DNA of 64,000 bases. Origin: Escherichia coli 042. Lineage in GTDB: Bacteria > Pseudomonadota > Gammaproteobacteria > Enterobacterales > Enterobacteriaceae. Below, piece by piece: positions 1 through 59,910 of this stretch. Position numbers and translations under genes: made by a program. Each line of letters begins with the position of its first letter. Position 1 is the stretch's first letter. The stretch is taken from NCBI RefSeq assembly GCF_000027125.1, contig NC_017626.1. One strand, written 5' to 3'. The notes below the pieces were generated by a model that saw only the letters and a program-made list of their open reading frames with translations, made no database searches and was not told the origin of the DNA.

Positions 1-775
1 CCGGAATTCATCAATCCACGCTTCGTCAATACGCTGTTCGATGGTTTCTGTTCGCTGCTCGCTTACCTCGCTATAATTCTGTACCGGCACAGGATTGATG
101 ATTTTTTCCTGTGGCTCTTCCAGTTCGTCCGGAGTATACACGCCCAGGATGACGTCAGGACAATAAAGGCGAGCCCAGTATTTCAACGCCAGATAGGCGA
201 GCTGTTGTTTCGGGTTTGAGGTCCATAAAGGAGAATTACGCGTAATCACGCTGGAAAGAAACACCGGTTCTCCCCAGGTAATCTCACTTTCACCGCGAAG
301 AACTGCACCAACTCGAACTGATAGACCATACTCATCTTCACTGGTCCAACATGGGATCGTTTCTTTTTTCTCATAGATTCCGCCTCCTTTGGCCGTTTTC
401 TTAACGGTCTCCACTCGGGTGCGAGAGCATTTCTCCCAGTCTCCCTCGTACTTGTAATGGAAGCGGCCTACAATTGCACTTGAGCTAGAGATCACAGCGT
501 TAACCAGTTGTGCTTCATAACCCAGAACTCCGTTTACCAGGTGTGTTTTCTGAGCCACAGCGTAGGGGTTCATGCCCCATTGCATGGCTTGCATGATGAT
601 TGCCATGCAGTCGGCAGGATTTCCGCGAAGGTGATCGGGAACTGTGACGGTGGCCTGTGACATCAACCTGGCTACTGCCTGAAGTTGCGTCAACGCCTGA
701 ACGTTAAAAATAGTGTTACTGGCAGAAATGGTATTTGGTGTCTGCTCTGTCGTGATGATATTGGTATTTTGCATG
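1..775 (-). CDS. Phage single-strand annealing/recombination protein, N-terminal part only (gene continues past window start)
   Basis: Hand translation of minus strand from ATG at 775 (MQNTNIITTEQ...) stays open to position 1; GGAG RBS; starts 13 nt after recE stop, the position recT occupies in Rac. Sequence does not resemble Rac RecT as I recall it, so family is uncertain. Confidence 0.5.
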
Positions 776-788
776 GTCAGGTTCTCCA

Positions 789-3700
789 TTAAGCCAGATG
801 CAGTGCTTCAAGACGACGAAGATCAAAGTCGTTTAATTCGTCGGTATAACTTTCGGTAATCGGTGCTGGCCAGTTGTTTGTCTCCAGGGCTTCGTTTATC
901 TGGCGTAGCGTCCGGCGATATTCCTGTCGACCAAGTTCCAGGAGTTCCTGCGAGGCTTCCACGACAGCCACCCAGTGATAGCCAGCATCTTTGTTGACGA
1001 AGATCCAGAAAAATTTTTCCAGGTTTGCCACATCGCAATACATTGCGGCGCTGAGGTGATAATCACGCTCAATAATTTCACGGTGCAGGCGATCTTTAAG
1101 TCGTTCCTGCCGCACATAACCGAGGCTGACTGACTTCACGTCGGCGCAAATGCTTTCGTATGGCAGCCGGATTTCGATATCAGGACGGACCCTGATTTCC
1201 AGCCCGGTTTCTTCATCAAACCCGAAATAGCTGATTTCAGATTTGCGATCCGGGTGGTTGAGTAGCCTTGCCGCATCAGTATTGTTTTGCAGTGCCGCGT
1301 GAATATTTTTTGCCTGTTCATACATATCCGGACTGATAAACGTTTTCCCGGCGTTTTCTTCTTGCTGGCGTTTTTGCCAGTCCTCCAGTGTCACCAGTTC
1401 CGGGCGAATTTTCCGTGCGATTTCGGTTAATTGCTCTTTCGTGCCACTGATGTTGTAAGGCAAAGATTTAGCACGTTCTTTTTTTGCCAGTTCTGGGTCT
1501 ACAGTTTCAATTTGATCCAGAAGTTGCTCCCGTGCTCCACTGGTTTTCAACAGAGGAGGGAGGCTTGCGTTGTATTCTTTAATACAGGCTTTCATTGCTG
1601 ATGCTGTGTGTTTTTCCCCCTCAGGGATACGCCGAAATTCCACCGGAAGCGAACCGTAAAGGATGCCTGTTTCTTCGGCCCCAGCACTTACAGACAGTGG
1701 CTGTATAAGAGTGCTGTTGTAGCTTTCGATCCACTCTTTCATCTGCTCTGGTGTCATCAGTGCTGGCAGACTGGCATTGTGTTTTTTAATGATGGCGATC
1801 AGTTCGTTAGAAGTAGTAACCACATATTCAGGAACCGGTACCGGAATGGCATATTCATCAGCGAATTTATCCGTTTCCAGAACATAGCTGTGAATGATCC
1901 TCCCACGCAGCAGTGCATCACTTTCCTCATTCGGAATAGTTCCGGCAATGTGCCGCCCGTGGTAATACATCAGGCTGATACGGGCATCCTTCAGCATCGT
2001 GCTGCTTATTCCGTTGGCGGAGTGATAAACCTCGTTCGGGAGGTTTTCATAGCGGCCTGGCTCGAAATATGACGGCCACATGATTTCAGTTGCTACAGGA
2101 GCTGACGCTTCACCAGTTTGATCACTGCAATCACGATGCGGATCGCTGCCAGCATTCTCATTGTGCGGATGTTCAGCGCCTTCCATTTCCACCGGATCTT
2201 TTTCCTTAGCTTCAACCTGATTCTCTTCATCGAATGTTTCCTGGTATGTTGCGTCGCCCATCACCGCGCCACAGTCAGGGCAGTTACTGCCGCCGGTCTG
2301 ACCGCAGGCGGCGCAGACTTTTTCCGGTTCCTGTTGCGCTTCTGGTTCATTTTGTCGCGAATTTTGGCCGTTTTGTTCCGATTTTCGGTCGTTCTGTTCC
2401 GTTTTTGGCTGATGCTGGTACACAGAATCGCGGGTCTGGATCCCCTTAACCCATTTCGGATCATTCGGGTCGCTAATCCCTTCAACAAATTCTCCGCGAT
2501 AGGCAGCCAGTAATTTGTCTGCATCAACAGAATTTACCTGTGACTGAGCATCCAGCGGCTGCGTGTCCTGATGATGTTCAGTTGCATCCGGTTCCACTGT
2601 TTCAGCCGTTGCCTGTTCATCTGCCATTGCGCCAGATGGTTGCGGTTTTTCTTCATCATTCTGTTTTCCCTCCTCTGTTACACGCTGCGGCATCGGGGCA
2701 GAGGAGCGACCGCAGGCAATATCCACGATTTCCGGATCAGGGTTGGCATGATCGGTTTCAGTCAGTACTTTGTTCAGATATTCTGTGACGTGCGCGGGGA
2801 TGACCTCGATCCCAATTGGTGCTTCTTTCACGGACGCAACCACGATGGCGCGAGAATAATCCAGCCCGCCAGGCATGGTGATGAATTTGTCGCGGAAAAC
2901 AGAAAAGGGCGGTTTATTTTCAGCGATAATTTCCTCAATGCGTTTAGCGTGTGCCGGATGAAGGTTATAGATGTCCACGTCCATTGAACGGGCCAGTACG
3001 CCAGTGGCTACGTCGCGCGCCAGTGACGTAAGATCGTGGACGAAACCTTCGCCGCGATCGGTGAGGTTCCCGCCGCCAGCATTAGCACCGGAAGCCGTGC
3101 GAGTGATGCGTGAAACACGATTACCCTTCATCCACTCTTTTGTCAGCAGTCCTCGATCGGTGTAGTCAGCGTTCAGGTATACTTCGAAAAAAGCAGTTAA
3201 CAGTCCCAAGTCTGAATTACCAGGATTAGGGAAAACTTTGTCAGTGTCACGAACCAGTTTGTGGAGATCGCGAATTTCCAGCGGGTCGAGCAGGCTGGTT
3301 TTGTGGGAAACAGCCAGGGCAGTAACAGCCGGTAGTTCTTCAGCCCGTGCAATGTGTAATGCCTGGAGTTCGCCGCGTGAAACGTGCGTTACCGGTTTTT
3401 CGCTGCCGTGTTGAGCAAGCCAACGAATGGGCAGTTCCTGGCCAGAAATTGGGAGTAGCATATTCTCCTCAATCTCAGTCATGTCTTCGCCGTTGACGTT
3501 GGTATTGCCTTGATAGTGAGCGTTGTCTGGTGCTGCTCCCGGTTTTAGTTCCCATGTCATGGAGTCTTTGCTGAGTTGATAGCGTTCACTCCAGGTAAAA
3601 TCGATCTCACCTTCAGCGGGCAGGTCATTAACGACAGGAAAATTCGTGGCAACAGCTTTAAAATAGCTGCTCAGTTTTTTACCTGACTTAACGATCTGGT

Positions 3701-4655: not shown

Positions 4656-5085
4656 AATTATCTCCATTTTCACAAATGAACTTTGTTGATGCGGTGCCTG
4701 GTGCCTCCAGGTGACGTTAACCAGTTAACAATTAACGCCGGATAATCCACCCATAACACTGATGCTTTTAACTGTTCCGCGTGCGCTTAGCCGCATTCAC
4801 CGCATCACAAAATTCACTTTAAAAAGGGCGGACATCAGCCGAACTTCAAGAAAAAACTGATGCCGCCAAGACTACACACAGCAATGTCGTTATTTACAAC
4901 CGGAGGCGCACTCCCACCATTTAAATTTAACAGACAAGACCGACTCTTTATGGATATCGGAAATGCGCCTTCGTGTTGCGCCCAGTTTTATTTCACCACC
5001 TCCGGGCTTCGGTGGTCTCGGCTATACCCCTACAGCGAGAGCTTGTGTTAACATTTCAATACCCTTACAGTTGAGAGTTATTGAT

Positions 5086-11021: not shown

Positions 11022-11201
11022 TTTTATGGAGCACCTTTCTTATTGATTTCATATTGGCGAGGTAGCGGGAGTTAAGTAAAATTGCTGCGGGTGCTTGAGG
11101 CTATCTGCCTCAGGCATGAACACCAAAAGGCAGATAGAGAAAAGCCCCAGTTAACATTACGCGTCCTGCAAGACGCTTAACATTAATCTGAGGCTCAATC
11201 T

Positions 11202-11414
11202 ATGCTGAACACATGTAGGTTAGCCTCTTACGTGCCGAAAGGCAAGGAGAAGCAGGCTATGAAGCAGCAAAAGGCGATGTTAATCGCCCTGATCGTCATC
11301 TGTTTAACCGTCATAGTGACGGCACTGGTAACGAGGAAAGACCTCTGCGAGGTACGAATCCGAACCGGGCAGACGGAGGTCGCTGTCTTCACAGCTTACG
11401 AACCTGAGGAGTAA
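11202..11414 (+). CDS. mok: mok-like overlapping reading frame (translational coupling to hok)
   Basis: 70-aa frame that contains the hok ORF in-frame, as in hok/mok loci. Confidence 0.5.
   Translation: MLNTCRLASYVPKGKEKQAMKQQKAMLIALIVICLTVIVTALVTRKDLCEVRIRTGQTEVAVFTAYEPEE
11259..11414 (+). CDS. hok: Hok/Gef family membrane toxin (51 aa)
   Basis: MKQQKAMLIALIVICLTVIVTALVTRKDLCEVRIRTGQTEVAVFTAYEPEE: Hok-family TM helix plus conserved C..E..R. Confidence 0.85.
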   Translation: MKQQKAMLIALIVICLTVIVTALVTRKDLCEVRIRTGQTEVAVFTAYEPEE

Positions 11415-13665: not shown

Positions 13666-13741
<76 letters not shown>

Positions 13742-13744
13742 TAT

Positions 13745-13819
<75 letters not shown>

Positions 13820-15769: not shown

Positions 15770-15906
15770 AATCTTAACTACAATATGATTCATTTTGATG
15801 ATTGTTTCATAAGGAACAGTGAAGTAAGATCTAAGATGAGTTAAATTTTATACAGTATAATCATAATGTTGCAGCAAGGTGGTTATAATTGAAAGAATAT
15901 TTAGAT

Positions 15907-17364
15907 ATGAATACATCTCATGTAAGAGTTGTTACTCATATGTGTGGGTTCCTGGTTTGGCTCTATAGTCTTTCAATGTTGCCACCAATGGTTGTAGCAT
16001 TGTTTTATAAAGAAAAAAGCCTGTTCGTTTTCTTTATAACTTTCGTTATATTTTTTTGCATTGGTGGCGGAGCGTGGTATACAACTAAGAAATCTGGTAT
16101 TCAATTACGTACCCGTGATGGGTTTATTATAATTGTAATGTTTTGGATTTTGTTTTCTGTTATTAGTGCATTCCCTTTATGGATTGACTCAGAACTTAAT
16201 TTAACGTTTATTGATGCTCTATTTGAAGGGGTTTCTGGAATAACAACAACAGGAGCAACTGTAATTGATGATGTTAGTTCATTACCTCGGGCATATTTGT
16301 ACTATCGGTCACAGTTAAATTTTATAGGTGGCTTAGGAGTTATTGTTCTGGCGGTTGCTGTATTGCCATTATTGGGTATTGGTGGTGCAAAGCTTTATCA
16401 GTCAGAAATGCCAGGGCCATTTAAGGATGACAAACTTACTCCCCGCCTGGCCGATACGTCACGGACACTTTGGATAACTTATTCTTTATTAGGTATTGCT
16501 TGTATTGTCTGTTATAGACTTGCAGGAATGCCTTTGTTTGATGCTATTTGTCACGGGATATCCACAGTTTCGCTTGGTGGTTTCTCAACTCATAGCGAGA
16601 GTATCGGATATTTTAATAACTATTTGGTTGAGCTGGTGGCTGGTTCTTTTTCCCTGCTATCGGCTTTCAACTTCACCCTTTGGTATATTGTTATTAGCAG
16701 GAAAACGTTAAAACCTTTAATCAGAGATATTGAACTTCGTTTCTTTCTGTTAATAGCCTTAGGGGTGATCATTGTTACCTCTTTCCAGGTCTGGCATATA
16801 GGTATGTATGACTTGCCTGGAAGTTTTATTCATTCGTTTTTTCTTGCCAGCTCCATGCTCACTGATAATGGTTTAGCTACGCAGGATTACGCAAACTGGC
16901 CCACGCACACGATAGTGTTTTTGCTGTTGTCAAGTTTCTTTGGGGGATGTATAGGTTCAACTTGTGGTGGAATTAAGTCACTTCGATTTCTTATACTTTT
17001 CAAACAAAGCAAACACGAGATAAACCAGCTTTCTCATCCCAGAGCGTTGTTGAGTGTAAATGTAGGAGGGAAGATAGTTACAGATCGTGTAATGAGGTCT
17101 GTATGGAGTTTCTTTTTTCTTTATACTCTCTTCACGGTGTTTTTTATACTGGTGTTAAATGGTATGGGATATGATTTTCTTACATCATTTGCAACAGTGG
17201 CTGCATGTATTAATAATATGGGATTAGGTTTTGGGGCTACTGCATCGTCATTCGGAGTGCTTAATGACATTGCAAAATATTTAATGTGCATAGCTATGAT
17301 TCTTGGTCGCCTTGAAATTTATCCTGTTATTATATTGTTTTCAGGTTTTTTTTGGCGCTCCTAA
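15907..17364 (+). CDS. trkG: Potassium uptake protein TrkG (485 aa)
   Basis: Polytopic membrane protein matching TrkG/TrkH; AT-rich relative to flanks. Confidence 0.85.
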   Translation: MNTSHVRVVTHMCGFLVWLYSLSMLPPMVVALFYKEKSLFVFFITFVIFFCIGGGAWYTTKKSGIQLRTRDGFIIIVMFWILFSVISAFPLWIDSELNLTFIDALFEGVSGITTTGATVIDDVSSLPRAYLYYRSQLNFIGGLGVIVLAVAVLPLLGIGGAKLYQSEMPGPFKDDKLTPRLADTSRTLWITYSLLGIACIVCYRLAGMPLFDAICHGISTVSLGGFSTHSESIGYFNNYLVELVAGSFSLLSAFNFTLWYIVISRKTLKPLIRDIELRFFLLIALGVIIVTSFQVWHIGMYDLPGSFIHSFFLASSMLTDNGLATQDYANWPTHTIVFLLLSSFFGGCIGSTCGGIKSLRFLILFKQSKHEINQLSHPRALLSVNVGGKIVTDRVMRSVWSFFFLYTLFTVFFILVLNGMGYDFLTSFATVAACINNMGLGFGATASSFGVLNDIAKYLMCIAMILGRLEIYPVIILFSGFFWRS

Positions 17365-27446: not shown

Positions 27447-27827
27447 ATGGCAAAGGCATGGGATATCGAACCGTCAATATTTGCCGGGATGATTGAGGAA
27501 GATGTGGGGCTGAAAATTCGCTACATCGCTATTCAGATTCTTACTGCTATCGATATTGCTGCTCCGGTTGATACCGGGCGTTTCAGAAATAACAACATGG
27601 TGTCGTTACAGCATCCCGATTTTGGTATATCTGATAACGTGGATCCGAACGGTACGATTGCGGTTCAGCGTGGGATCGGGGTTATTTCGAAAGCTGCAAA
27701 TTACGGAATTATTTATATCCAGAATAACCTTCCTTATGCAGAGGCTCTTGAAAACGGTCATTCACAACAAGCGCCAACTGGCGTGTATGCCAACGCTTTT
27801 CATGGTGTTTTACAGGCTTACAAATGA
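27447..27827 (+). CDS. Head-tail joining / tail completion protein (putative)
   Basis: Gene order. Confidence 0.5.
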   Translation: MAKAWDIEPSIFAGMIEEDVGLKIRYIAIQILTAIDIAAPVDTGRFRNNNMVSLQHPDFGISDNVDPNGTIAVQRGIGVISKAANYGIIYIQNNLPYAEALENGHSQQAPTGVYANAFHGVLQAYK

Positions 27828-28216
27828 CGTTTACTGAAATCAGAAATACGGTCATTTCCAGAATGACGGCACAGACGGTTATTAATGGAAAAGACGTATT
27901 GTATCCGAACGGGCCAACGTTCGATCCTTCCGGTAAGTTAATCTGGGCGCGGTTAAGTAATATTCCCGGGCAGGCTGGAGTTAATGAAATTGGTGCGGGG
28001 CCGGTTGTTTATCGCACGGGGATAATCATTATTCAGTTATTTGTCCCCGCAGGTTCTGGTTCAAAACTCATTACTGAGACAGCCGATAAATTGCGGGAAC
28101 TGTTTGAGTTTCAGGATGACGACCGTCTCAGTTACCAGGCTGTTTCCTCAATAACCGTTGGCGAAAAGAATGGCTGGTTCCAGCTTAATCTTCAAATTCC
28201 ATATCGCGCGCTCTAG
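27824..28216 (+). CDS. Tail completion/terminator protein (putative)
   Basis: Gene order immediately before major tail protein. Confidence 0.5.
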   Translation: MTFTEIRNTVISRMTAQTVINGKDVLYPNGPTFDPSGKLIWARLSNIPGQAGVNEIGAGPVVYRTGIIIIQLFVPAGSGSKLITETADKLRELFEFQDDDRLSYQAVSSITVGEKNGWFQLNLQIPYRAL

Positions 28217-28242: not shown

Positions 28243-29205
28243 GTGAGTTCAGGTGCAAAGGTTATCTCGGCATTTATCCGGGAGACAGTTGCAGGCACCA
28301 CACCAGCAAGTGGTGACTGGAGTTTATTAAAACGCACAAGCTGGGGAGTAAAACCCACCCAGAATAAAGGCGAAAATAATGAGATTGGTGGCTCCCGGAT
28401 GGCTCAGGGGGCGACGCCTGGCACTGTGGATGTTGGCGGTGATGTTGGTACCAAATTTCGCTGGGGTCAACATGATGATTTTCTTGCATCCTGTTTCGGC
28501 GCGGAATGGTCAGGTGATTCTCTGACAATGGGGAATGAGCGAATAACATTTTCTCTGGCGACCTATGCGTCCGATGTCGGAATTGCCTCTGTTGTCAGAG
28601 GAGCGCAGGTTGGCTCATGGAAAATGCAGATCCCTAACGACGGCGATATTACGGCGACCGTAACCTTTGCCGGGCTGGACTGGGAATCAAAGGCCGATGA
28701 TACGAATTTTATCAAAGGCGAACCTGTGGATAGTGCAGGAAAGCTACGTTATTCGTTTAAGGAGGTTTCAGCAGTAAGCCTGAATGGTGTTGCCGGAGGT
28801 AACGGTTTTTGTATCGACAGTTTTGATATTCAGTTCGATAACAAACTCCAGACACAGCGTTGTATCGGGACTGGCTCGCCTTATGCAGGAGCAAATATTC
28901 CGACTACTTTTACACCGTCCGGTACGGTGACGCTTTCATGGTCTAAAGCCGCGTGGGAAATCTGGAGTAAAACACTGACTGGAGAAACAGTTCCGTTCAG
29001 CTTCACGCTTTCGAATGGAGAGGGGGCATACACTTTCAGTTTCCCGAAGGTTCAGATGTCAGGTGAATGGCCTGATGGGGGTAATACCGACATTATCCAG
29101 GTTCAATTGAGCATTACCGCAGCAGATGAAGCACCTACGATAACCAGAAAAAAAGCCTCCCCGGCTGCCGTGATCGCAAAAGCCAGTGCTGAGGCGATTA
29201 GTTGA
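28243..29205 (+). CDS. Major tail (tube) protein, 320 aa
   Basis: Position before G/GT chaperone; size. Confidence 0.65.
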   Translation: MSSGAKVISAFIRETVAGTTPASGDWSLLKRTSWGVKPTQNKGENNEIGGSRMAQGATPGTVDVGGDVGTKFRWGQHDDFLASCFGAEWSGDSLTMGNERITFSLATYASDVGIASVVRGAQVGSWKMQIPNDGDITATVTFAGLDWESKADDTNFIKGEPVDSAGKLRYSFKEVSAVSLNGVAGGNGFCIDSFDIQFDNKLQTQRCIGTGSPYAGANIPTTFTPSGTVTLSWSKAAWEIWSKTLTGETVPFSFTLSNGEGAYTFSFPKVQMSGEWPDGGNTDIIQVQLSITAADEAPTITRKKASPAAVIAKASAEAIS

Positions 29206-42305: not shown

Positions 42306-42586
42306 TGAAAGATTTAACACTCAAATTTGCCGACAGGGCCGACTTTTCGGCCTTTATGGATAGCACTGGCTATTATGATGACGAGTCGATGCAGGATGAT
42401 ATTCTTATTGACGTGATAGGTAACGTGTACAAAGAAACCGGAGAACTGACTGAAGATGGCGAACCGGTATGTGTTAAGGAAGACGGATATTTTGTAAACG
42501 TGCGCATCATTAATGATTCGCAAATATCGTCATTATTCGATGAATACGTGGTTGCTGTTGAGCATCAACTTCGTGGCTGGATGTGA
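42305..42586 (+). CDS. Hypothetical acidic protein, 93 aa
   Basis: ORF between fibre genes. Confidence 0.45.
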   Translation: MKDLTLKFADRADFSAFMDSTGYYDDESMQDDILIDVIGNVYKETGELTEDGEPVCVKEDGYFVNVRIINDSQISSLFDEYVVAVEHQLRGWM

Positions 42587-42595
42587 GGAAGAAAA

Positions 42596-43636
42596 ATGGC
42601 TACATCGACAGTAATTCCTGATGACATCAAAACGCTAAAATCCGACGTTAGCAAATTAAAAAACGATCAAGGAAGCTACGCAACAAAATTATATGTAGAC
42701 AGCAAAGATGAAATCGTTGGTGACTGGTCTGCTTCATGGTATCAGCAGGTATTGCCAACTAGCGGAGCTATATTTGGGAGAAAACTCCGCTCAACTCACA
42801 GGACGGCAGGTGTTGAGGATGCGTATTGCGAACTATACCTCAAAAAATGGATAGACAGTCCAGGTAACGCAATGGCGCGCCTTAACCTGAACGATAACGG
42901 GACAAACATTTGCTGGGACTTTACCAACCTTTATGGCGGTACGATGATTTTTCCCGGTGACAGCGGATACCTCAAAATGGGTAACTGCCTTATGTCATAC
43001 AGCAAGCGTGGAAGTAACGCGCTTATTAAATTTGATTACACCGACACATTACAGATCAAATATGCCAATCATGGGTCAACCATGACATTAAACACACAGG
43101 GAACCGCTTATGCTGGTGTTACTGCTCAATTGTGGGGCAACACCAGCCGTCCTGTTGTTTATGAAGTCGGTGTTGATGGTGGCGCTTATATGTTCTATGC
43201 GCAGAAAAATACCGATAACACCTATATGTTAAGCGTTAATGGTGCATGTCATGCCACCGCATTTAACCAGCATTCCGACCGGGATCTGAAAGACAACATT
43301 CAGGTGATCGATAATGCAACCGACCGCATCCGTAAAATGAACGGCTATACATACACGCTTAAAGAAAACGGTATGCCCTATGCTGGTGTCATTGCACAGG
43401 AAGCTCTGGAAGCAATCCCAGAAGTTGTAGGTTCCGCAATGAAATATCAGGACGGTGCGAGCGGATCGGAAGGTGAAGAAGGTGAACGTTATTACACAGT
43501 AGATTATTCTGGTGTTACTGGCTTGCTTGTTCAGGTAGCCAGAGAGTCAGACGACAGAATAACAGCACTGGAAGAAGAAAACGCAGAATTAAGACAAAGA
43601 TTATCTGCAATTGAGGCGGCGCTTGCGTCTAAATAA
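42596..43636 (+). CDS. Tail fibre protein with C-terminal intramolecular-chaperone (S74-like) domain
   Basis: C-terminal chaperone-domain character followed by coiled-coil (TALEEENAELRQRL). Confidence 0.7.
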   Translation: MATSTVIPDDIKTLKSDVSKLKNDQGSYATKLYVDSKDEIVGDWSASWYQQVLPTSGAIFGRKLRSTHRTAGVEDAYCELYLKKWIDSPGNAMARLNLNDNGTNICWDFTNLYGGTMIFPGDSGYLKMGNCLMSYSKRGSNALIKFDYTDTLQIKYANHGSTMTLNTQGTAYAGVTAQLWGNTSRPVVYEVGVDGGAYMFYAQKNTDNTYMLSVNGACHATAFNQHSDRDLKDNIQVIDNATDRIRKMNGYTYTLKENGMPYAGVIAQEALEAIPEVVGSAMKYQDGASGSEGEEGERYYTVDYSGVTGLLVQVARESDDRITALEEENAELRQRLSAIEAALASK

Positions 43637-43642
43637 TATTAA

Positions 43643-43665
43643 GGGGCCGAGCGCCCCGTTTTATT
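43643..43665 (+). terminator. Intrinsic terminator after tail fibre gene
   Basis: ggggc-cgagc-gcccc then gttttatt. Confidence 0.5.
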
Positions 43666-43678
43666 GGGTAGGATGAAA

Positions 43679-43972
43679 ATGGATATAACACCTTTCCTTC
43701 ATGCGCTTTGTGCTGTGGCTGCGCAGCTACTGATTGGTCTTTTTACCGGGAACTGGGCTTACGGGGCGATAGCCGGTTGTACGTTCTTCATTGCGCGTGA
43801 ACACACCCAGGCAGAATATCGCTGGATCGAAATGTTCGGGCATGGCAAGCGAATGAATATGCCGTGGTGGGGCGGTTTTGATCCGCGTGCATGGGATGTG
43901 GCAAGCCTGATGGATTTTGCTGTGCCGGTGGTGGCGTGTCTGCTGGTCTGGCTGTTGGTTAATCGTGGGTGA
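43679..43972 (+). CDS. Small membrane protein of unknown function (97 aa), terminal moron
   Basis: RBS AGGA; two to three predicted TM segments. Confidence 0.5.
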   Translation: MDITPFLHALCAVAAQLLIGLFTGNWAYGAIAGCTFFIAREHTQAEYRWIEMFGHGKRMNMPWWGGFDPRAWDVASLMDFAVPVVACLLVWLLVNRG

Positions 43973-44323
43973 AAAAAGGTGAGCTGTATATGCAACGGAG
44001 GAAGAAACCCCGTTGCTGGAAGCCTGGAAAAAGTATCGGATGCTGCTGAACCGTGTTGATACATCAACTGCACCTGATATTGAGTGGCCTACGAACCCTG
44101 TCAGGGAGTAATCATTGGGATTATGCCGCAGAAACGTTGTATGCAATAACGTTCTGCGGTTGGCTGATGCACTTTCGAGAGTGCATGTATTGAATTATTT
44201 CCAGCTATTATCGATTTTACGTATTTTTTGCATGAGAGAATTTGTACCTCCTCCCAACAACGACCTTCCATGACTTTCCGGACTTCTGTGGGCCAGCGGA
44301 CGATGCTGCCCTCGGATGTTGTG

Positions 44324-45181
44324 CTAATTGGGTGATGACAAATCCTGTGTATGGGTGTTTCCCTTTGTGCGTGCGTTGATGCTGGTAACGGTGAACGTCA
44401 TGATGAACACAACCGCGAATAAGACGACAATCGTCGGAGCTGGTGCACTGTCGATAAAAAAGGACAACCAGACACCAGTCATTGACACTATTACCGATAT
44501 GCCAATCGCCAGTAGGAGCGCAATATGAAAGCGTTGTGTCAGGAGTACCGCAATGGCGCCAGGCGCAATGAGCAGAGAAATGGAGAGAATGATACCTACC
44601 GCTTTCAGCGTCGCCACAATGGTCAGAGAGACCATGCACAGCAGCCCATAATGCAGACATCTCGTATGCAAACCGCTTACCTGCGCCTGTTGATAATCAA
44701 AGCTGAACAGCAAAAAATCCCGCCATTTTACGCTAATAACAAGTGTAACCAACCCGGCAATAATCACCGTCTGGATTATATCGCCGATGGTTACCCCGAG
44801 CATGTCGCCGAAAAGAATATGGTCAAGATGTACGTCTGGTTTGACTGCAATATACAAGATCAGACCTGCGGCAAACATGCCAGAAAAAACAATCCCCATC
44901 ACTGTATCTTGCTTGATTCGGCTGTTGTCTTTCAGGTATCCCGTCGCCACCGCGCAGAATACTCCGGCGACGAATGCCCCTGTAGCCAGAGGTAACCCCA
45001 GAATCCAGGCAAGCACGATGCCAGGAAAAACCGCATGACTCATCGCGTCACCCATCAGTGCCCAACCTTTCAGGACCAGAAAGACCGACAGCAGCGCACA
45101 GGGTATGGAAACTACCAGTGAAATCAGCAGTGCGTGACTCATAAAGGTGAACTGCAGTGGCTCCAGTAATAATGCCATCAT
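44324..45181 (-). CDS. sitD: Mn/Fe ABC transporter permease SitD
   Basis: Polytopic permease; operon order sitABCD. Confidence 0.9.
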   Translation of the reverse strand: MMALLLEPLQFTFMSHALLISLVVSIPCALLSVFLVLKGWALMGDAMSHAVFPGIVLAWILGLPLATGAFVAGVFCAVATGYLKDNSRIKQDTVMGIVFSGMFAAGLILYIAVKPDVHLDHILFGDMLGVTIGDIIQTVIIAGLVTLVISVKWRDFLLFSFDYQQAQVSGLHTRCLHYGLLCMVSLTIVATLKAVGIILSISLLIAPGAIAVLLTQRFHIALLLAIGISVIVSMTGVWLSFFIDSAPAPTIVVLFAVVFIMTFTVTSINARTKGNTHTQDLSSPN

Positions 45182-46035
45182 GAGCGATCCTCCAGCGCTT
45201 TATGCGCACGCCGACGATTTGCCAAAAGCCCATGGGTGGGCGCAAATACAAATGCTAAAAGAAACAGCAGTGTCTGCGCCACCACGATGATTCCACCTGT
45301 CGCGCCGTCCAGAAAGTAACTGACCCACGCGCCGAGGAAACTGGTTACACTGCCAATAGTTACAGCAATTATGAGCAGGCGGGGAAAATGATCGGTTAAC
45401 AACCATGCTGTTGCACCGGGAGTCACCACCAGACAGATCACCAGAAAGGCACCAACCGTTTGCAGCGCCGCAACGGTCGAAACCGACAGCAGGGTGAAGA
45501 AGAGGATTTTTAATCTGCCCGGATGCAATCCAATAGCACGAGCGTGATTCTCGTCGAAAAAGGTCACCATAAGATCTTTCCATTTGAAAAAAAGCACGAT
45601 GATCGAGAGAATGCCAATGATAGTGAGTTGCAGGATATCCGCCGGATCGATTGCCAGAATATTGCCCAGGACGATGGTCTGAATGTTCACGGATGTCGGG
45701 TTCAATGACACCATAAACAGCCCCAGGCCAAAAAAGGAGGAGAAGATCAGGCCGATGATGGCATCTTCTTTTAAGCGAGTGCGTTGGTTAAGAAACAGCA
45801 TGCTGCCCGCTGCCAGTCCGCCGGAAAAGAAGGCTCCCAGAGAAAACGGAAGCCCCAGCATATATGCCCCCGCAACACCCGGGACAATAGAGTGCGACAG
45901 CGCATCGCCAATCAGCGACCAGCCTTTTAGCATCAGATAGCATGACAGGAAAGCGCAGAGACCGCCGACCATCGCCGAGACCCACATCGCATTGAGCATA
46001 TATTCATAGCTGAAGGGTTCCAGTAGCACGTTCAT
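45178..46035 (-). CDS. sitC: Mn/Fe ABC transporter permease SitC
   Basis: Polytopic permease paralogous to SitD. Confidence 0.9.
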
Positions 46036-46859
46036 CTTGCTTCCCCCTGCACCGCTGACGGTCGATGTGCCACAAAAGGGTGTTCATCGTCAGTAATAAT
46101 GCTTTCTTCCGAGCCGTTAAGTGTGACATGGCGCAGTACGCCGCTAAAAGCCAGCTCCAGGTTCTCGGCTGTAAAAGTGGTGTCTGTCGGCCCGCTTGCC
46201 AGGACGGTGCCTTTGACCATGACCGTATAATCGCAAAATGTCGTGACTGAGCCGAGATTGTGCGTTGAGACAAGCATCGTCTTGCCTTCCGCGCGTAACT
46301 CCCTCAACAGGCTGATGATTTTCGCTTCGGTTTTCACATCAACGCCGGTAAAAGGTTCATCCAGCAGGATCACATCACCCTGCTGTGCAATCGCTCTCGC
46401 CAGAAAGACGCGTTTCTTTTGTCCACCGGAAAGCTCGCCGATTTGTCGATGGCGAAAATCCACCATATCGACACGTTCCAGCGCATCGGTGACAATCTGA
46501 CGATCCCTCTTTTTGGCTATACGCAACATACCCATGTGCCCATAGCGGCCCATCATCACCACATCTTCCACTAGTACAGGAAATGACCAGTCAACCTCTT
46601 CTGACTGAGGGACGTAGGCAACCAGGTTTTTCTGTAGCGCCTGTCGCGTGGGAATACCCAGAACAGATATCTTTCCGCTGGTCAGACGGACAAATCCCAT
46701 AATCGCTTTAAACAACGTCGATTTTCCGGAACCGTTTACCCCAACCAGAGCGGCAATAGATCCACTTGGTACTGTGAAGGATGCATCGCGCAGTGCTGTG
46801 TGCCCGTTACGCCAGGTGACAGTAACATCATTAACGACAATGCCCGCAGATTGCATCAT
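46032..46859 (-). CDS. sitB: Mn/Fe ABC transporter ATP-binding protein SitB
   Basis: Walker [13 protein letters not shown] signature LSGGQKKR, Walker B ILLDEP. Confidence 0.9.
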
Positions 46860-47773
46860 TATTTCTCCCTTTTCCCGGCTTTAATTCCCTGTACCAGCGT
46901 ACTGGTAGTAACCTTCAGAAGGTCGATATACGTAGGTACCGGGCCGTTTTCTGTGCTCAGGGAATCGACATAGAGTACACCGCCGTAGTGCGCGCCGGTT
47001 TCACGCGCAACCTGACGCGCTGGTTTATCGGAAATCGTACTCTCGCTAAAGACTGCCGGGATATGATTTTTCTTCACCATATCAACAACCTTACGTACCT
47101 GCTGCGGCGTGCCTTGTTGATCGGCATTAATCGGCCACAGATAAAGCTCTTTTAGCCCCAAATCGCGTGCGAGATAAGAAAAAGCCCCTTCACTGGTGAC
47201 CATCCATCGCTGATTCTCAGGGAGTTCAGCAATCTGCTTACGCAGGGGGGCAAGGGTTTGGGTAATCTTGGCTTTATAAGTATCGGCATTACGTTGGTAG
47301 GTTTGTGCATTTGCCGGATCGTATTTTATCAACGCATCACGAATATTATCGACATAAATCAGAGCATTATCTGGCGACATCCAGGCATGGGGGTTAGGTT
47401 TGCCCTCATAGGGTCCTTCGGTGATCCCTACTGGCGTCACACCCGAAGAGACAATTACTTCTGGAACCCCATTGAGATGTTGGTAAAAGCGTTGGAACCA
47501 CAATTCCAGATTCATACCATTGGCGAGAATCAGTTGTGCCCCCTGCGCACGTTTAATATCTCCAGGGGTAGGCTGATACTCATGAATTTCTGCACCAGGC
47601 TTGGTTATGGATGAGACTTCTGCAGCATCTCCAGCCACGTTTTTGGCCATATCCGCGATGATGGTAAATGTTGTAATGACCTTGAATTTTTCAGTTGCAC
47701 TTGCCTGAAATGCGATCGAGCAGGTGAGGGCGAGGCACCCCAAGAGCATGGTTACTTTTTTTATTGAGTGCAT
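46859..47773 (-). CDS. sitA: Periplasmic metal-binding protein SitA
   Basis: Signal peptide; cluster-9 substrate-binding protein family. Confidence 0.9.
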
Positions 47774-47805
47774 AATTTAGTACCTATAGTGAGCAAAATT
47801 AGAAA

Positions 47806-47827
47806 AAACATAGCAACAGCTATGTTT
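47806..47827. promoter_or_regulatory. MntR box (perfect palindrome AAACATAGC-AACA-GCTATGTTT)
   Basis: Palindrome 33-54 bp upstream of sitA start; matches E. coli MntR operator consensus. Confidence 0.75.
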
Positions 47828-47845
47828 TATAGCATAAGCCATGCA

Positions 47846-47866
47846 AAATGAAAATGATTATCATTA
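47846..47866. promoter_or_regulatory. Fur box-like site
   Basis: aatgaaaatgattatcattag resembles GATAATGATAATCATTATC. Confidence 0.6.
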
Positions 47867-48325
47867 GCGGTTGTGGGCCCAACACAGGGATTAGGTTGTT
47901 TCCTGCTGGCGATGTGGTATTGAGGAAAAAATTAGGGCAGCTATTAGGCTTTGAAATGACTTTATGAGGAGAATTGTTGATGGCAAAAATGGGGCAAAGC
48001 GCTGCAAAAGGGGCAAAAAAGGGGCAAAAAAAGAGTGGGTTATCGTAGCTTATTGTTGTCGCTGATGATGTTTAACACATTGAAAAATAAGTAAAATACT
48101 TATGAGTCAGAGAGTTGTGATTTTTGCCCTTACTTGTTCAGATTGTATTGTTCTTTCTTACTAATTTCTTGATTTTGCGACATTTAAAAGCGACTCAATT
48201 CGTTATATGGCATCAGAAGAGTATGCGTCATGCCGGAAAGCCCAGCATAAGAAATCTGATATAAAAACTGTGGCGTGTATGGTACGGATTAGAGGGGAAA
48301 ATGTCAGCACATTTGCGAAATGAAT

Positions 48326-48351
48326 CAAAAAGCCCGCAGCAATGTGCGGGC
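48326..48351 (-). terminator. uspF intrinsic terminator
   Basis: gcccgca-loop-tgcgggc with T5 on minus strand. Confidence 0.6.
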
Positions 48352-48358
48352 GTTAGTG

Positions 48359-48874
<516 letters not shown>

Positions 48875-50067: not shown

Positions 50068-50294
50068 TGAATAAATCCTTTAGTTATTTTATTTGCCTTT
50101 TATCCCCATTTCGGGGAGTGAAAACATCCTAAAGGAGATGTTCAGTTAGCCGATAAATATCATTTGTTACGCCTTAAGTAAAACCTTAATCAAATAATTC
50201 TTCTGAAATGATAATAAGTCTGGTGAATGTATTGGAGATAATACATACAAAATAAAAATTATACTTTTAATTTGCTATACGTTATTCTGCGCGG

Positions 50295-50403
50295 GTTATA
50301 TGCCTTTATTGTCACAGATTTTATTTTCTGTTGGGCCATTGCATTGCCACTGATTTTCCAACATATAAAAAGACAAGCCCGAACAGTCGTTCGGGCTTTT
50401 TTT
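50295..50403 (+). ncRNA. micC: MicC small regulatory RNA
   Basis: Sequence GTTATATGCCTTTATTGTCACAG... ending in gcccgaac...gttcgggc + T-run; between ompN and ydbK. Confidence 0.85.
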
Positions 50404-50432
50404 TAGAATTGGATAATTCTTATCCAGAGCAT

Positions 50433-59513: not shown

Positions 59514-59552
59514 AACTAATTCGCGTTGCTGTACATGCAACGCGAATTAGTT
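59514..59552. terminator. 39-bp palindrome (bidirectional terminator-like)
   Basis: aactaattcgcgttgc-tgtacat-gcaacgcgaattagtt. Confidence 0.45.
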
Positions 59553-59784
59553 AGCGGAATTTACGTCGATACTCGCCTGGCGTCATCCCAAAGCGTTGAT
59601 TAAATACCGTTGAAAAATGACTCTGGTCGGAAAATCCCCAATGAAAGCCAATGCCTGCCAGTTTTTCATCATCTGCGGCATGGCGAATCGCATCTGCACA
59701 AAAATCGAGACGACGGTTACGGATATATTGCGCGACTACCAAACCTTTATCGGCAAACTTTATCAGCGCGTAGCGCCTGCTGCT
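59551..59784 (-). pseudogene. feaR: feaR 3' remnant (AraC-family C-terminal HTH only)
   Basis: Frame encodes ...GFHWGFSDQSHFSTVFNQRFGMTPGEYRRKFR; stop at 59785-59787 truncates it to about 77 codons. Confidence 0.6.
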
Positions 59785-59787
59785 TTA

Positions 59788-59910
59788 GCGTTCGTTAGTG
59801 AAAAAGGTGAAACCTCGGTCGGTGAACTGCCTGCGCCGGGAAGCCTGTATTTTCAACGTTTTGGCGGCTTGAATATTGAACAGGACGCGTTATGCCAATT
59901 TATCAGATAG
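59788..59910 (+). pseudogene. paaX: Probable paaX 3' remnant
   Basis: Open frame running into and overlapping the paaY start; identity inferred from synteny only. Confidence 0.35.

Follow-up and report, generated by a model that had tools for sequence, protein, structure and literature searches.

A sitABCD metal-importer operon as likely cargo of a Rac-family prophage in Escherichia coli 042

Introduction

Escherichia coli 042 carries a sitABCD operon between the tail-fibre end of a prophage and the host gene uspF, which raises the question of whether the operon is cargo of the prophage or part of a separate island that abuts attR. An earlier note on this DNA left both alternatives standing and proposed that the operon is controlled by manganese and iron. 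Here, we address these points for a 64,000-nt stretch of the chromosome (contig NC_017626.1), referred to below as the window; the features under discussion are collected in Table 1.

Results

An intact sitABCD operon

Four minus-strand open reading frames (ORFs) at 44324-47773, each overlapping the next at its stop and start codons, correspond to sitDCBA. SitB scores 589.6 bits against the NCBIfam equivalog NF011630, "manganese/iron ABC transporter ATP-binding protein" (cut-off 393), SitA, SitC and SitD match binding-protein and permease families of Mn/Zn ABC transporters with E values of 1e-50 to 1e-63, and a RefSeq locus 99.8% identical to this one carries sitA-D annotation. The earlier note had described a complete minus-strand sitABCD operon, the ORFs of which it placed correctly, and both the family matches and the RefSeq locus agree with that description. 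The gene order (binding protein, ATPase, permease, permease) is that of the SitABCD/YfeABCD Mn2+/Fe2+ ABC importers. SitA aligns without gaps to structures of Yersinia pestis YfeA (5uxs; E 1e-124) and matches a fragment of Salmonella SitA (5jg7) at E 3e-86. Residues H64, H129, E195 and D270 of SitA have identical counterparts in YfeA at +12, a His/His/Glu/Asp set which we take to be the YfeA metal site. By its sequence, SitA is a cluster A-I periplasmic binding protein with these conserved positions and a signal peptide. By gene content, the operon is intact and predicted to encode an Mn2+/Fe2+ ABC importer; transport of both Mn2+ and Fe2+ has been reported for the Sit homologues of avian pathogenic E. 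coli (APEC), Shigella and Salmonella (review PMC3852070).

Table 1. Coordinates of the sitABCD locus and its surroundings in the window
Feature	Position	Strand	Remarks
Tail fibre	39924-42305	+	PHROG tail/tail-fibre families, E 0 to 1e-220; collinear RefSeq annotation
Small phage ORF	42305-42586	+	Among the last prophage structural genes (39924-43636)
Tail-fibre domain protein	42596-43636	+	PHROG tail/tail-fibre families; collinear RefSeq annotation
Small phage ORF, phrog_1443	43664-43972	+	Function not assigned; accompanies sit in icd-type phages too
C-terminal tfa (tail-fibre assembly) remnant	43992-44111	+	PHROG tail-fibre assembly matches; homologous to K-12 tfaR 3' end
Two stable hairpins	44125-44185		Where the tail-fibre and sit operons converge; fold -30.6 kcal/mol, z = -3.45
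sit cassette	44304-47963	-	Operon, promoter and operators; 3.66 kb; bounds from comparison with other carriers
sitD	44324-45181	-	285 aa; inner-membrane permease subunit
sitC	45178-46035	-	285 aa; inner-membrane permease subunit
sitB	46032-46859	-	275 aa; ATPase subunit; NCBIfam NF011630 equivalog
sitA	46859-47773	-	304 aa; periplasmic Mn/Fe-binding protein, N-terminal signal peptide
MntR operator	47806-47827		AAACATAGCAACAGCTATGTTT, perfect 9-4-9 palindrome
Predicted sigma-70 promoter	47826-47854	-	-35 TTTTCA 47854-47849, 17-nt spacer, -10 TATAAA 47831-47826; placed by eye
Fur box	47850-47868	-	GCTAATGATAATCATTTTC, 17/19 to consensus
P' arm of Rac-type attachment site	47981-48133		K-12 homology; three GGGGCAAA repeats at 47991-48028
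attR core, prophage right boundary	48134-48159		TTGTTCAGATTGTATTGTTCTTTCTT; five-way alignment of attR, attB, attL, attP
ttcC, displaced original 5' end of ttcA	48134-48184	-	Same as K-12 ttcC (27959-28009 of K-12 locus L002)
uspF, first host gene	48359-48793	-	NCBIfam UspF equivalog, 302.6 bits

The operon lies inside the prophage boundary

The tail-fibre end of the prophage and uspF, which the earlier note had named as the neighbours of sit, were identified correctly; what it had overlooked is that the ~590 bp between sitA and uspF hold an attachment-site arm and the ttcC remnant. Homology to the Rac prophage of E. coli K-12 resumes at 47981, which is 152 bp inside the annotated end of K-12 Rac, and positions 47981-48600 are 98.6% identical to K-12. 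The three GGGGCAAA copies of the P' arm fall within 38 nt, a clustering that is in itself suggestive; counted over all 64 kb, the motif is not significantly enriched (6 versus 3.4 expected). Genomes with an intact, empty ttcA site beside uspF are homologous to the window exactly from 48134 onward, and the comparison of genomes with and without the prophage, one of the checks proposed in the earlier note, places the boundary at the same position as the mapped att core. At the opposite end of the element, intR-xisR-ttcA is found in the collinear relative KK19-02 and in those genomes that are most closely related to the window at its left end. The window itself begins in recT/recE; to go by these relatives, attL and int sit ~2.4 kb to the left of its edge, and the attL core in ttcA is expected to read TTGTTCAGGTTGTATTGTTCTTTCTT.

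On the other side of sit, the last prophage genes run towards the operon and end in a truncated tfa gene, 90% identical to the 3' end of K-12 tfaR and annotated as a partial pseudogene in a relative. The block 43670-44048 is common to the phages ev207 and PhiR63_2 at 95-97% identity. The two hairpins that follow are probably terminators; K-12 Rac has the first of them too, directly ahead of its att arm (87% match, 27732-27769 of the same K-12 locus). We considered the segment 43980-44320 as the site of the att core, which would have put sit outside the prophage, and rejected it: it contains the tfa 3' remnant and the hairpins, one of which is internal to K-12 Rac too, its K-12 matches are confined to the tfaR 3' end and the hairpin, and no att-like repeat was found in it.

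These data decide between the two readings with which we began. A separate genomic island lying outside attR and merely abutting the prophage would fit the orientation of sit, which is opposite to that of the phage late genes, and its position directly after a truncated tfa, which resembles a prophage end. However, sit is separated from uspF by the att core and its Rac P' arm, the empty-site genomes align only from beyond the operon, the tfa side offers no candidate repeat, and the same cassette occurs in isolated phage genomes (see below). Since the att core is on the uspF side, sit is prophage cargo, and the island reading is almost certainly wrong. Base composition, also proposed as a check, gave no signal: GC content is 50.4% in sit, 48.2% in the prophage and 48.4% in the host flank, and GC and GC3 profiles do not independently support a foreign origin, with only the promoter and the att arm being AT-rich. 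We conclude, with a probability of about 0.93, that sitABCD is a moron of a full-length, ~50-kb Rac-family lambdoid prophage in ttcA, occupying a slot of variable content that separates the tail-fibre genes from the att site, with the tfa remnant on one side and the att arm on the other. As expected of a dispensable moron, it occurs in some related phages and is lacking in others: the same slot holds pinR-ynaE-ynaM in K-12 Rac, and far more genomes have an occupied ttcA than have the sit-attR junction (see below). The earlier note had given the K-12 filler as pinR-ynaE-ttcC; the first two genes stand, whereas ttcC is kept in both strains.

A related possibility is that the prophage is defective and that sit, having lost its mobility as cargo, has effectively become a fixed, phage-derived operon of the chromosome, its function and regulation being unchanged. 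K-12 Rac is cryptic, the tfa gene here is truncated, the inducibility of the prophage is inferred, and the att core carries one substitution: position 48141 is A, and G in attB, attL, K-12 attR and one attP copy, a change that could slightly impair excision. Against this, the modules for lysis, terminase, portal, capsid, tail and tail fibre are all complete in this element, as they are not in the 23-kb K-12 Rac, it is collinear with the ~53-kb KK19-02 prophage, which has int and xis, and plaque-forming icd-type phages share the arrangement of truncated tfa and sit. Accordingly, we regard a defective prophage as somewhat unlikely, albeit with appreciable weight, and cargo of a full-length prophage remains our preferred reading.

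Promoter and operators of sit

A sigma-70 promoter is predicted upstream of sitA, such that its -35 hexamer overlaps a Fur box and its -10/+1 region overlaps an MntR operator; transcription would start near 47819. This promoter is missing from the scanner output, since its -10 hexamer, TATAAA, ends in A. The inverted repeat AAACATAGC-N4-GCTATGTTT close to this predicted promoter is indeed the perfect MntR palindrome claimed by the earlier note, and it is the sole match in the window even at three mismatches (0.03 expected); its half-sites match the box upstream of K-12 mntH, AAACATAGCAAAGGCTATGTTT, letter for letter. The Fur box-like site that had been placed at 47846-47866 is real, but its register was off by a few bases, and the best fit (Table 1) is the single site in the window at three or fewer mismatches (0.03 expected). 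Phages and plasmids that carry the cassette have kept both boxes; across four carriers, the DNA between the boxes varies and the MntR box is invariant except for its spacer.

Could the palindrome and the AT-rich site resembling a Fur box nevertheless not be operators, leaving sit constitutive or under other factors? Their role in this strain is read from sequence, and a simple scan also picks up the palindrome, together with the T-run after it, as a terminator-like hairpin. Yet the identity of the half-sites to the mntH box, the low chance expectation of each motif and the conservation of both boxes amid varying neighbouring bases all make this very improbable. Repression of mntH and sitABCD by MntR, import of both Mn and Fe by Sit, and repression of the Salmonella and Shigella sit systems by MntR and Fur have moreover been reported (PMC3852070), and a Fur box lies upstream of phage-borne sit (PMC6969025). 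Dual Mn/Fe control by MntR and Fur, as the earlier note proposed, is thus supported at the level of motifs, to which the two repressors would bind.

The cassette in other phages and in ColV plasmids

The phages ev207 and PhiR63_2, as well as one phage-plasmid record, contain the cassette as the same block, 97.5% identical. Both ev207 and PhiR63_2 are isolated lambda-like phages with icd as integration site, and in both the cassette is flanked by the tail fibres and by att/int of the icd type. On ColV plasmids, the copies span 44295/44317 to 47987/47998 at 97.4-97.6% identity and retain ~25 bp of the Rac-type right flank, followed by IS1. The ColV/ColBM plasmids, pAPEC-O2-ColV among them, thus have the same cassette with the same operators, but flanked there by IS1 and aerobactin genes. 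Tentatively, one may picture the cassette as a discrete module moved by illegitimate or microhomology-mediated recombination, with the ColV copy apparently captured from a Rac-type phage; we consider this scenario rather unlikely as it stands. If it is true and not already noted, temperate phages would be the source of a major plasmid-borne virulence locus of extraintestinal pathogenic E. coli (ExPEC) and APEC.

The pAPEC-O2-ColV record contains an intact Rac attP beside sit, which at first sight is strong evidence of phage-to-plasmid capture. This weight was downgraded, since the attP is unique among PLSDB plasmids and is followed by a stretch of N and by GAATTCACTAGTGATT, which resembles a cloning vector; it is possible that the record is a chimeric assembly with excised phage DNA.

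Two further observations concern the cassette. Its left end is always joined to a tfa-3'-like CGGRTGYTGCTG motif, and it is found in lambdoid phages with differing integrases, of the Rac/ttcA type and of the icd type. Among complete E. coli genomes, 43%, or ~2,300 genomes, carry sit, 9% have the exact sitA-attR-uspF junction and ~54% have an occupied ttcA.

Discussion

The presence of sitABCD with a Fur box as tail-end prophage cargo is already published, and control of sit by MntR and Fur is textbook knowledge. Prophage 042p3 (ROD21) of enteroaggregative E. coli 042, ~50 kb in length, has sitABCD as tail-end cargo (Chaudhuri et al. 2010, PMC2808357). The operon is separated from the edge of that prophage by a few hundred bp, the same architecture as in the window, and the element is described there as bounded by a 15-bp repeat. 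Among lambda phages of the infant gut, 70% carry sitABCD (Mathieu et al. 2020, PMC6969025). The infant-gut phages ev207 (Jouyvirus) and Lambda_2E9 from that study, as well as PhiR63_2, resemble the window in having the 97.5% identical cassette, with the same Fur and MntR boxes, placed as here behind the tail-fibre genes and phrog_1443. However, these icd-type phages differ in having an icd-type rather than a Rac/ttcA integrase and att site, in joining the cassette directly to the tfa stub and in having the hairpin segment on the other side of sit. In the adherent-invasive E. coli strain LF82, the sitABCD genes of the active lambda-like prophage Perceval count among its morons, and the lysogen expresses them at 4-13-fold over the prophage background (Misson et al. 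2023, PMC9928086).

K-12 Rac shares with the element the ttcA site, the attR core, the P' arm, the ttcC remnant and the tfaR 3' end, along with the backbone genes recE, kilR, sieB, ydaS-V and trkG, but it is a cryptic remnant without head and tail genes and has a different filler in place of sitABCD. The sitABCD of Salmonella pathogenicity island SPI-1, the Shigella sit genes and Yersinia yfeABCD specify the same four-gene Mn2+/Fe2+ ABC importer and differ in the carrier, being located on SPI-1 and chromosomal islands, as opposed to an intact Rac-type prophage here.

The following picture of how the locus may work can be drawn. SitA, as a secreted periplasmic binding protein, would capture Mn2+ or Fe2+, and the SitC/SitD permease would import the metal, powered by the SitB ATPase. 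As the sit operon faces the tail-fibre operon and has a predicted sigma-70 promoter of its own, it would not depend on phage late transcription and would be expressible in the lysogen. The host repressors Fur-Fe2+, bound at the box over the -35 hexamer, and MntR-Mn2+, bound at the palindrome over -10/+1, would shut the operon off when either metal is plentiful. In this way, a lysogen starved of metal or under oxidative stress would have a high-affinity importer of Mn and Fe at its disposal, and the phage would gain the fitness of its host, with sit being spread by lysogeny.

As a discovery, the locus carries little weight, being present in thousands of sequenced E. coli. The att mapping supplies an exact right boundary (48134) for the annotation of this prophage, and the locus provides a clean worked example of a phage-borne fitness/virulence operon wired into the metal regulons of its host.

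The sit operon and the boundary of the prophage

BLAST comparison of the window with the ttcA-Rac-uspF region of E. coli K-12, in which Rac is a cryptic prophage in ttcA, showed that the window starts within the recT/recE region of a Rac-family prophage, the Rac backbone being common to the two genomes in patches only. Homology to K-12 ends past the 3' end of tfaR (43991-44089) and resumes at 47981, 152 bp inside the annotated Rac end of K-12. It extends into a counterpart of ttcC almost identical to the K-12 pseudogene, which originally formed the 5' end of ttcA and has been displaced. In complete E. coli genomes with an intact ttcA adjoining uspF, alignment to the window begins only at 48134. 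A five-way alignment of the window attR, an empty attB (MS14385), attL of the collinear relative KK19-02, K-12 attR, and an attP-form sequence revealed a 26-bp core, TTGTTCAG(G/A)TTGTATTGTTCTTTCTT, in all five sites. In its left half attB agrees with attL and in its right half with attR, and attP agrees with attR on the left and attL on the right, the textbook pattern. Only the window carries A instead of G at 48141, a core mismatch that might influence excision. Since the core maps to 48134-48159 and empty-site genomes align from its first position, all sequence to the left, sitABCD included, belongs to the prophage. The earlier note had left open whether the operon is prophage-end cargo or an island abutting attR; with the core on the uspF side of sit, the former reading stands and the latter is excluded. 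Nor does the core fall within 43980-44320, the position that the note had named as speaking against cargo; that segment holds a tfa C-terminal remnant and two stable hairpins, and one of the two also occurs inside K-12 Rac. The GC content was uninformative on the origin of sit.

The P' arm contains three GGGGCAAA repeats within 38 nt, and two further copies lie in the P arm beside intR (positions 4970-4990 of the K-12 region, 29100-29125 of comparison sequence L003); these repeats are candidate arm-type integrase binding sites. In KK19-02, intR, xisR, and ttcA are found ~2.4 kb beyond the left edge of the window, as they are in the strains closest to its first 2.6 kb; judged from these relatives, the prophage would be roughly 50 kb long, with its other end outside the window. 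The genome paper on EAEC 042 lists a 50.4-kb prophage that has, as cargo, sitABCD "at the tail end" (PMC2808357). Unlike K-12 Rac, a 23-kb relic, the present element is complete in its modules for lysis, packaging, head, tail, and tail fibres.

Features of the window. Identifiers and lengths are given where available.
Feature	Position	Strand	Details
recT and recE N-terminal region	1-2094		recE ORF 1007 aa
sok antitoxin RNA	11089-11264	+	Rfam RF01794, 119.6 bits
tRNA-Thr(TGT), tRNA-Gly(TCC)	13666-13819	+	tandem prophage tRNA genes
trkG	15889-17364	+	potassium transporter, homologue of K-12 Rac trkG
tfa-3'-like motif CGGRTGYTGCTG	44039-44050, 44293-44304		also L004 7365-7385, L007 4000-4020 (comparison sequences)
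sit cassette	44304-47963
sitD	44324-45181	-	285 aa, six-frame ORF list
sitC	45178-46035	-	285 aa, six-frame ORF list
sitB	46032-46859	-	275 aa, six-frame ORF list
sitA	46859-47773	-	304 aa, six-frame ORF list
MntR palindrome	47806-47827		AAACATAGC-AACA-GCTATGTTT
Fur-like site	47850-47868		GCTAATGATAATCATTTTC on the sit strand, 17/19
P' arm	47981-48133		GGGGCAAA repeats at 47991-48028
att core	48134-48159
ttcC counterpart	48134-48184
MicC small RNA	50292-50412	+	Rfam, 127.5 bits

Several other features of the prophage and its flank are listed in the table. The recT/recE allele is unlike those of K-12 and KK19-02 and has its best matches (99.0%) in STEC strains, indicating mosaicism of the early region within the Rac family. 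The sok match implies that the early region carries a hok/sok toxin-antitoxin module; KK19-02 is different here, with a 2.4-kb P-loop NTPase gene at about this place. The trkG gene is a second transporter cargo of the prophage. Beyond uspF, MicC has ompN on one side and nifJ/ydbK on the other, the same arrangement as in K-12. In the collinear relative (L001 35948-36307; window ~59547-59906), a partial HTH gene fused to partial paaX comes after ydbL and is itself followed by paaY; the feaR-feaB-tynA-paaZ...paaK block of K-12 therefore appears to have been deleted in this lineage.

Products and regulation of the operon

The complete minus-strand sitABCD operon reported in the earlier note was recovered as four ORFs at exactly the same coordinates, all with family matches. 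Neighbouring ORFs overlap at their stop and start codons (ATGA, ATGATG), as is typical of a translationally coupled operon. SitB passes the NCBIfam equivalog for manganese/iron ABC ATP-binding proteins (589.6 bits against a cut-off of 393), SitA matches Mn/Fe/Zn substrate-binding families, and SitC and SitD match metal ABC permease families (E 1e-50 to 1e-55); the 99.8% identical locus of KK19-02 is annotated as sitA, sitB, sitC, and sitD in RefSeq. SitA carries an N-terminal signal peptide and aligns without gaps to crystal structures of Yersinia pestis YfeA (E 1e-124), with conservation of His64, His129, Glu195, and Asp270, which we take to be the positions of the YfeA metal site.

Upstream of sitA, the claimed MntR palindrome is present and is the sole match in the 64-kb window even at three mismatches (0.03 expected). 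The Fur-like site is likewise real and unique in the window (0.03 expected), but its best register is 47850-47868 rather than 47846-47866 as noted previously. On the sit strand, this region reads ...gcTAATGATAATCATTTTCattttgcatggcttatgcTATAAAACATAGCTGTTGCTATGTTTtttctaattttgctcactataggtactaaattATG, from which we infer a sigma-70 promoter whose -35 (TTTTCA) and -10 (TATAAA) hexamers are separated by 17 nt; a simple promoter scan passed over it on account of the final A of the -10 hexamer. The predicted -35 would lie inside the Fur box and the predicted -10/+1 would overlap the MntR palindrome, so that Fur or MntR, each alone, would occlude RNA polymerase. The MntR half-sites are identical to those of the box ahead of K-12 mntH (AAACATAGCAAAGGCTATGTTT), which is also preceded by a Fur-like GATAATCATTCTC. 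Alignment of the Rac-type copy with the ev207-type one and two from plasmids showed conservation of both boxes, the sole change in the MntR box falling in the 4-nt spacer, and the 13 nt between the boxes include several variable positions. The proposed dual Mn/Fe control is thus supported at the sequence level. Published data agree: according to a review, MntR represses mntH and sitABCD, and Sit transports both Mn2+ and Fe2+ (PMC3852070). The operon and that of the tail fibres converge on a segment with hairpins, a layout that fits an autonomous unit expressed from a repressed prophage. In the active prophage Perceval of LF82, sit genes, termed morons, are transcribed 4-13-fold over the prophage background (PMC9928086).

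Carriers and spread of the sit cassette

Comparison of carriers delimited a 3.66-kb cassette, which extends 20 bp beyond the sitD stop codon at one end and ~190 bp ahead of the sitA start at the other. It is found at 97.5% identity in isolated lambda-like phages, including ev207/Jouyvirus, Lambda_2E9, 1H12, and PhiR63_2; as in the window, these phages carry it after the tail-fibre genes and a small phrog_1443 ORF. They have an icd-type integration module in place of that of Rac. In the lambda phages of Mathieu et al., sitABCD was present in 70%, "in all cases" with a Fur box (PMC6969025). The cassette is also found on about a thousand ColV-type plasmids, where IS1 and aerobactin genes flank it. 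The slot was previously described as pinR-ynaE-ttcC in K-12; pinR and ynaE are indeed there, but the third gene is ynaM, and a ttcC counterpart persists in the window. With pinR-ynaE-ynaM in the same slot of K-12 Rac, sit is a variable module, carried as cargo in the lambdoid "b-region".

Whether the carrier is the Rac-type prophage, an icd-type phage, or a ColV plasmid, the tfa-3'-like motif directly borders the cassette on its sitD side; in the window it occurs twice, ~255 bp apart. In ev207, the cassette replaces ~95 bp between this motif and the middle of the hairpin; the window, by contrast, has the hairpin segment whole, with sit beyond it. The recurrent junction and this difference point to illegitimate or microhomology joins rather than a dedicated mobility system. 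Ahead of IS1, ColV plasmids retain ~25 bp of a right flank that is specific to the Rac type, and in the pAPEC-O2-ColV record (NC_007675.1, 7660-8060) sit is followed by a complete Rac-type attP, in the order P' arm (shorter, with fewer GGGGCAAA repeats), core, P arm, and the int 3' end. The retained flank and attP suggest that the plasmid copy derives from a Rac-type phage. However, this attP is the only one of its kind among PLSDB plasmids and gives way to a run of N and then GAATTCACTAGTGATT, resembling a cloning-vector polylinker, so that its position beside sit may reflect a chimeric assembly.

Among 5,426 complete E. coli genomes, the sit operon is present in 2,336 (43%), accompanied by at least some of the flanking DNA of the window in 1,549 (29%); the exact sitA-attR-uspF junction occurs in 494 (9%), and the ttcA attB is empty in 2,489 (46%). 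All parts of the arrangement, namely the transporter family, dual MntR/Fur control, carriage at the tail-fibre/att end of lambdoid prophages, and Rac/ttcA integration, have already been described, and the window is a further example of a very common arrangement.
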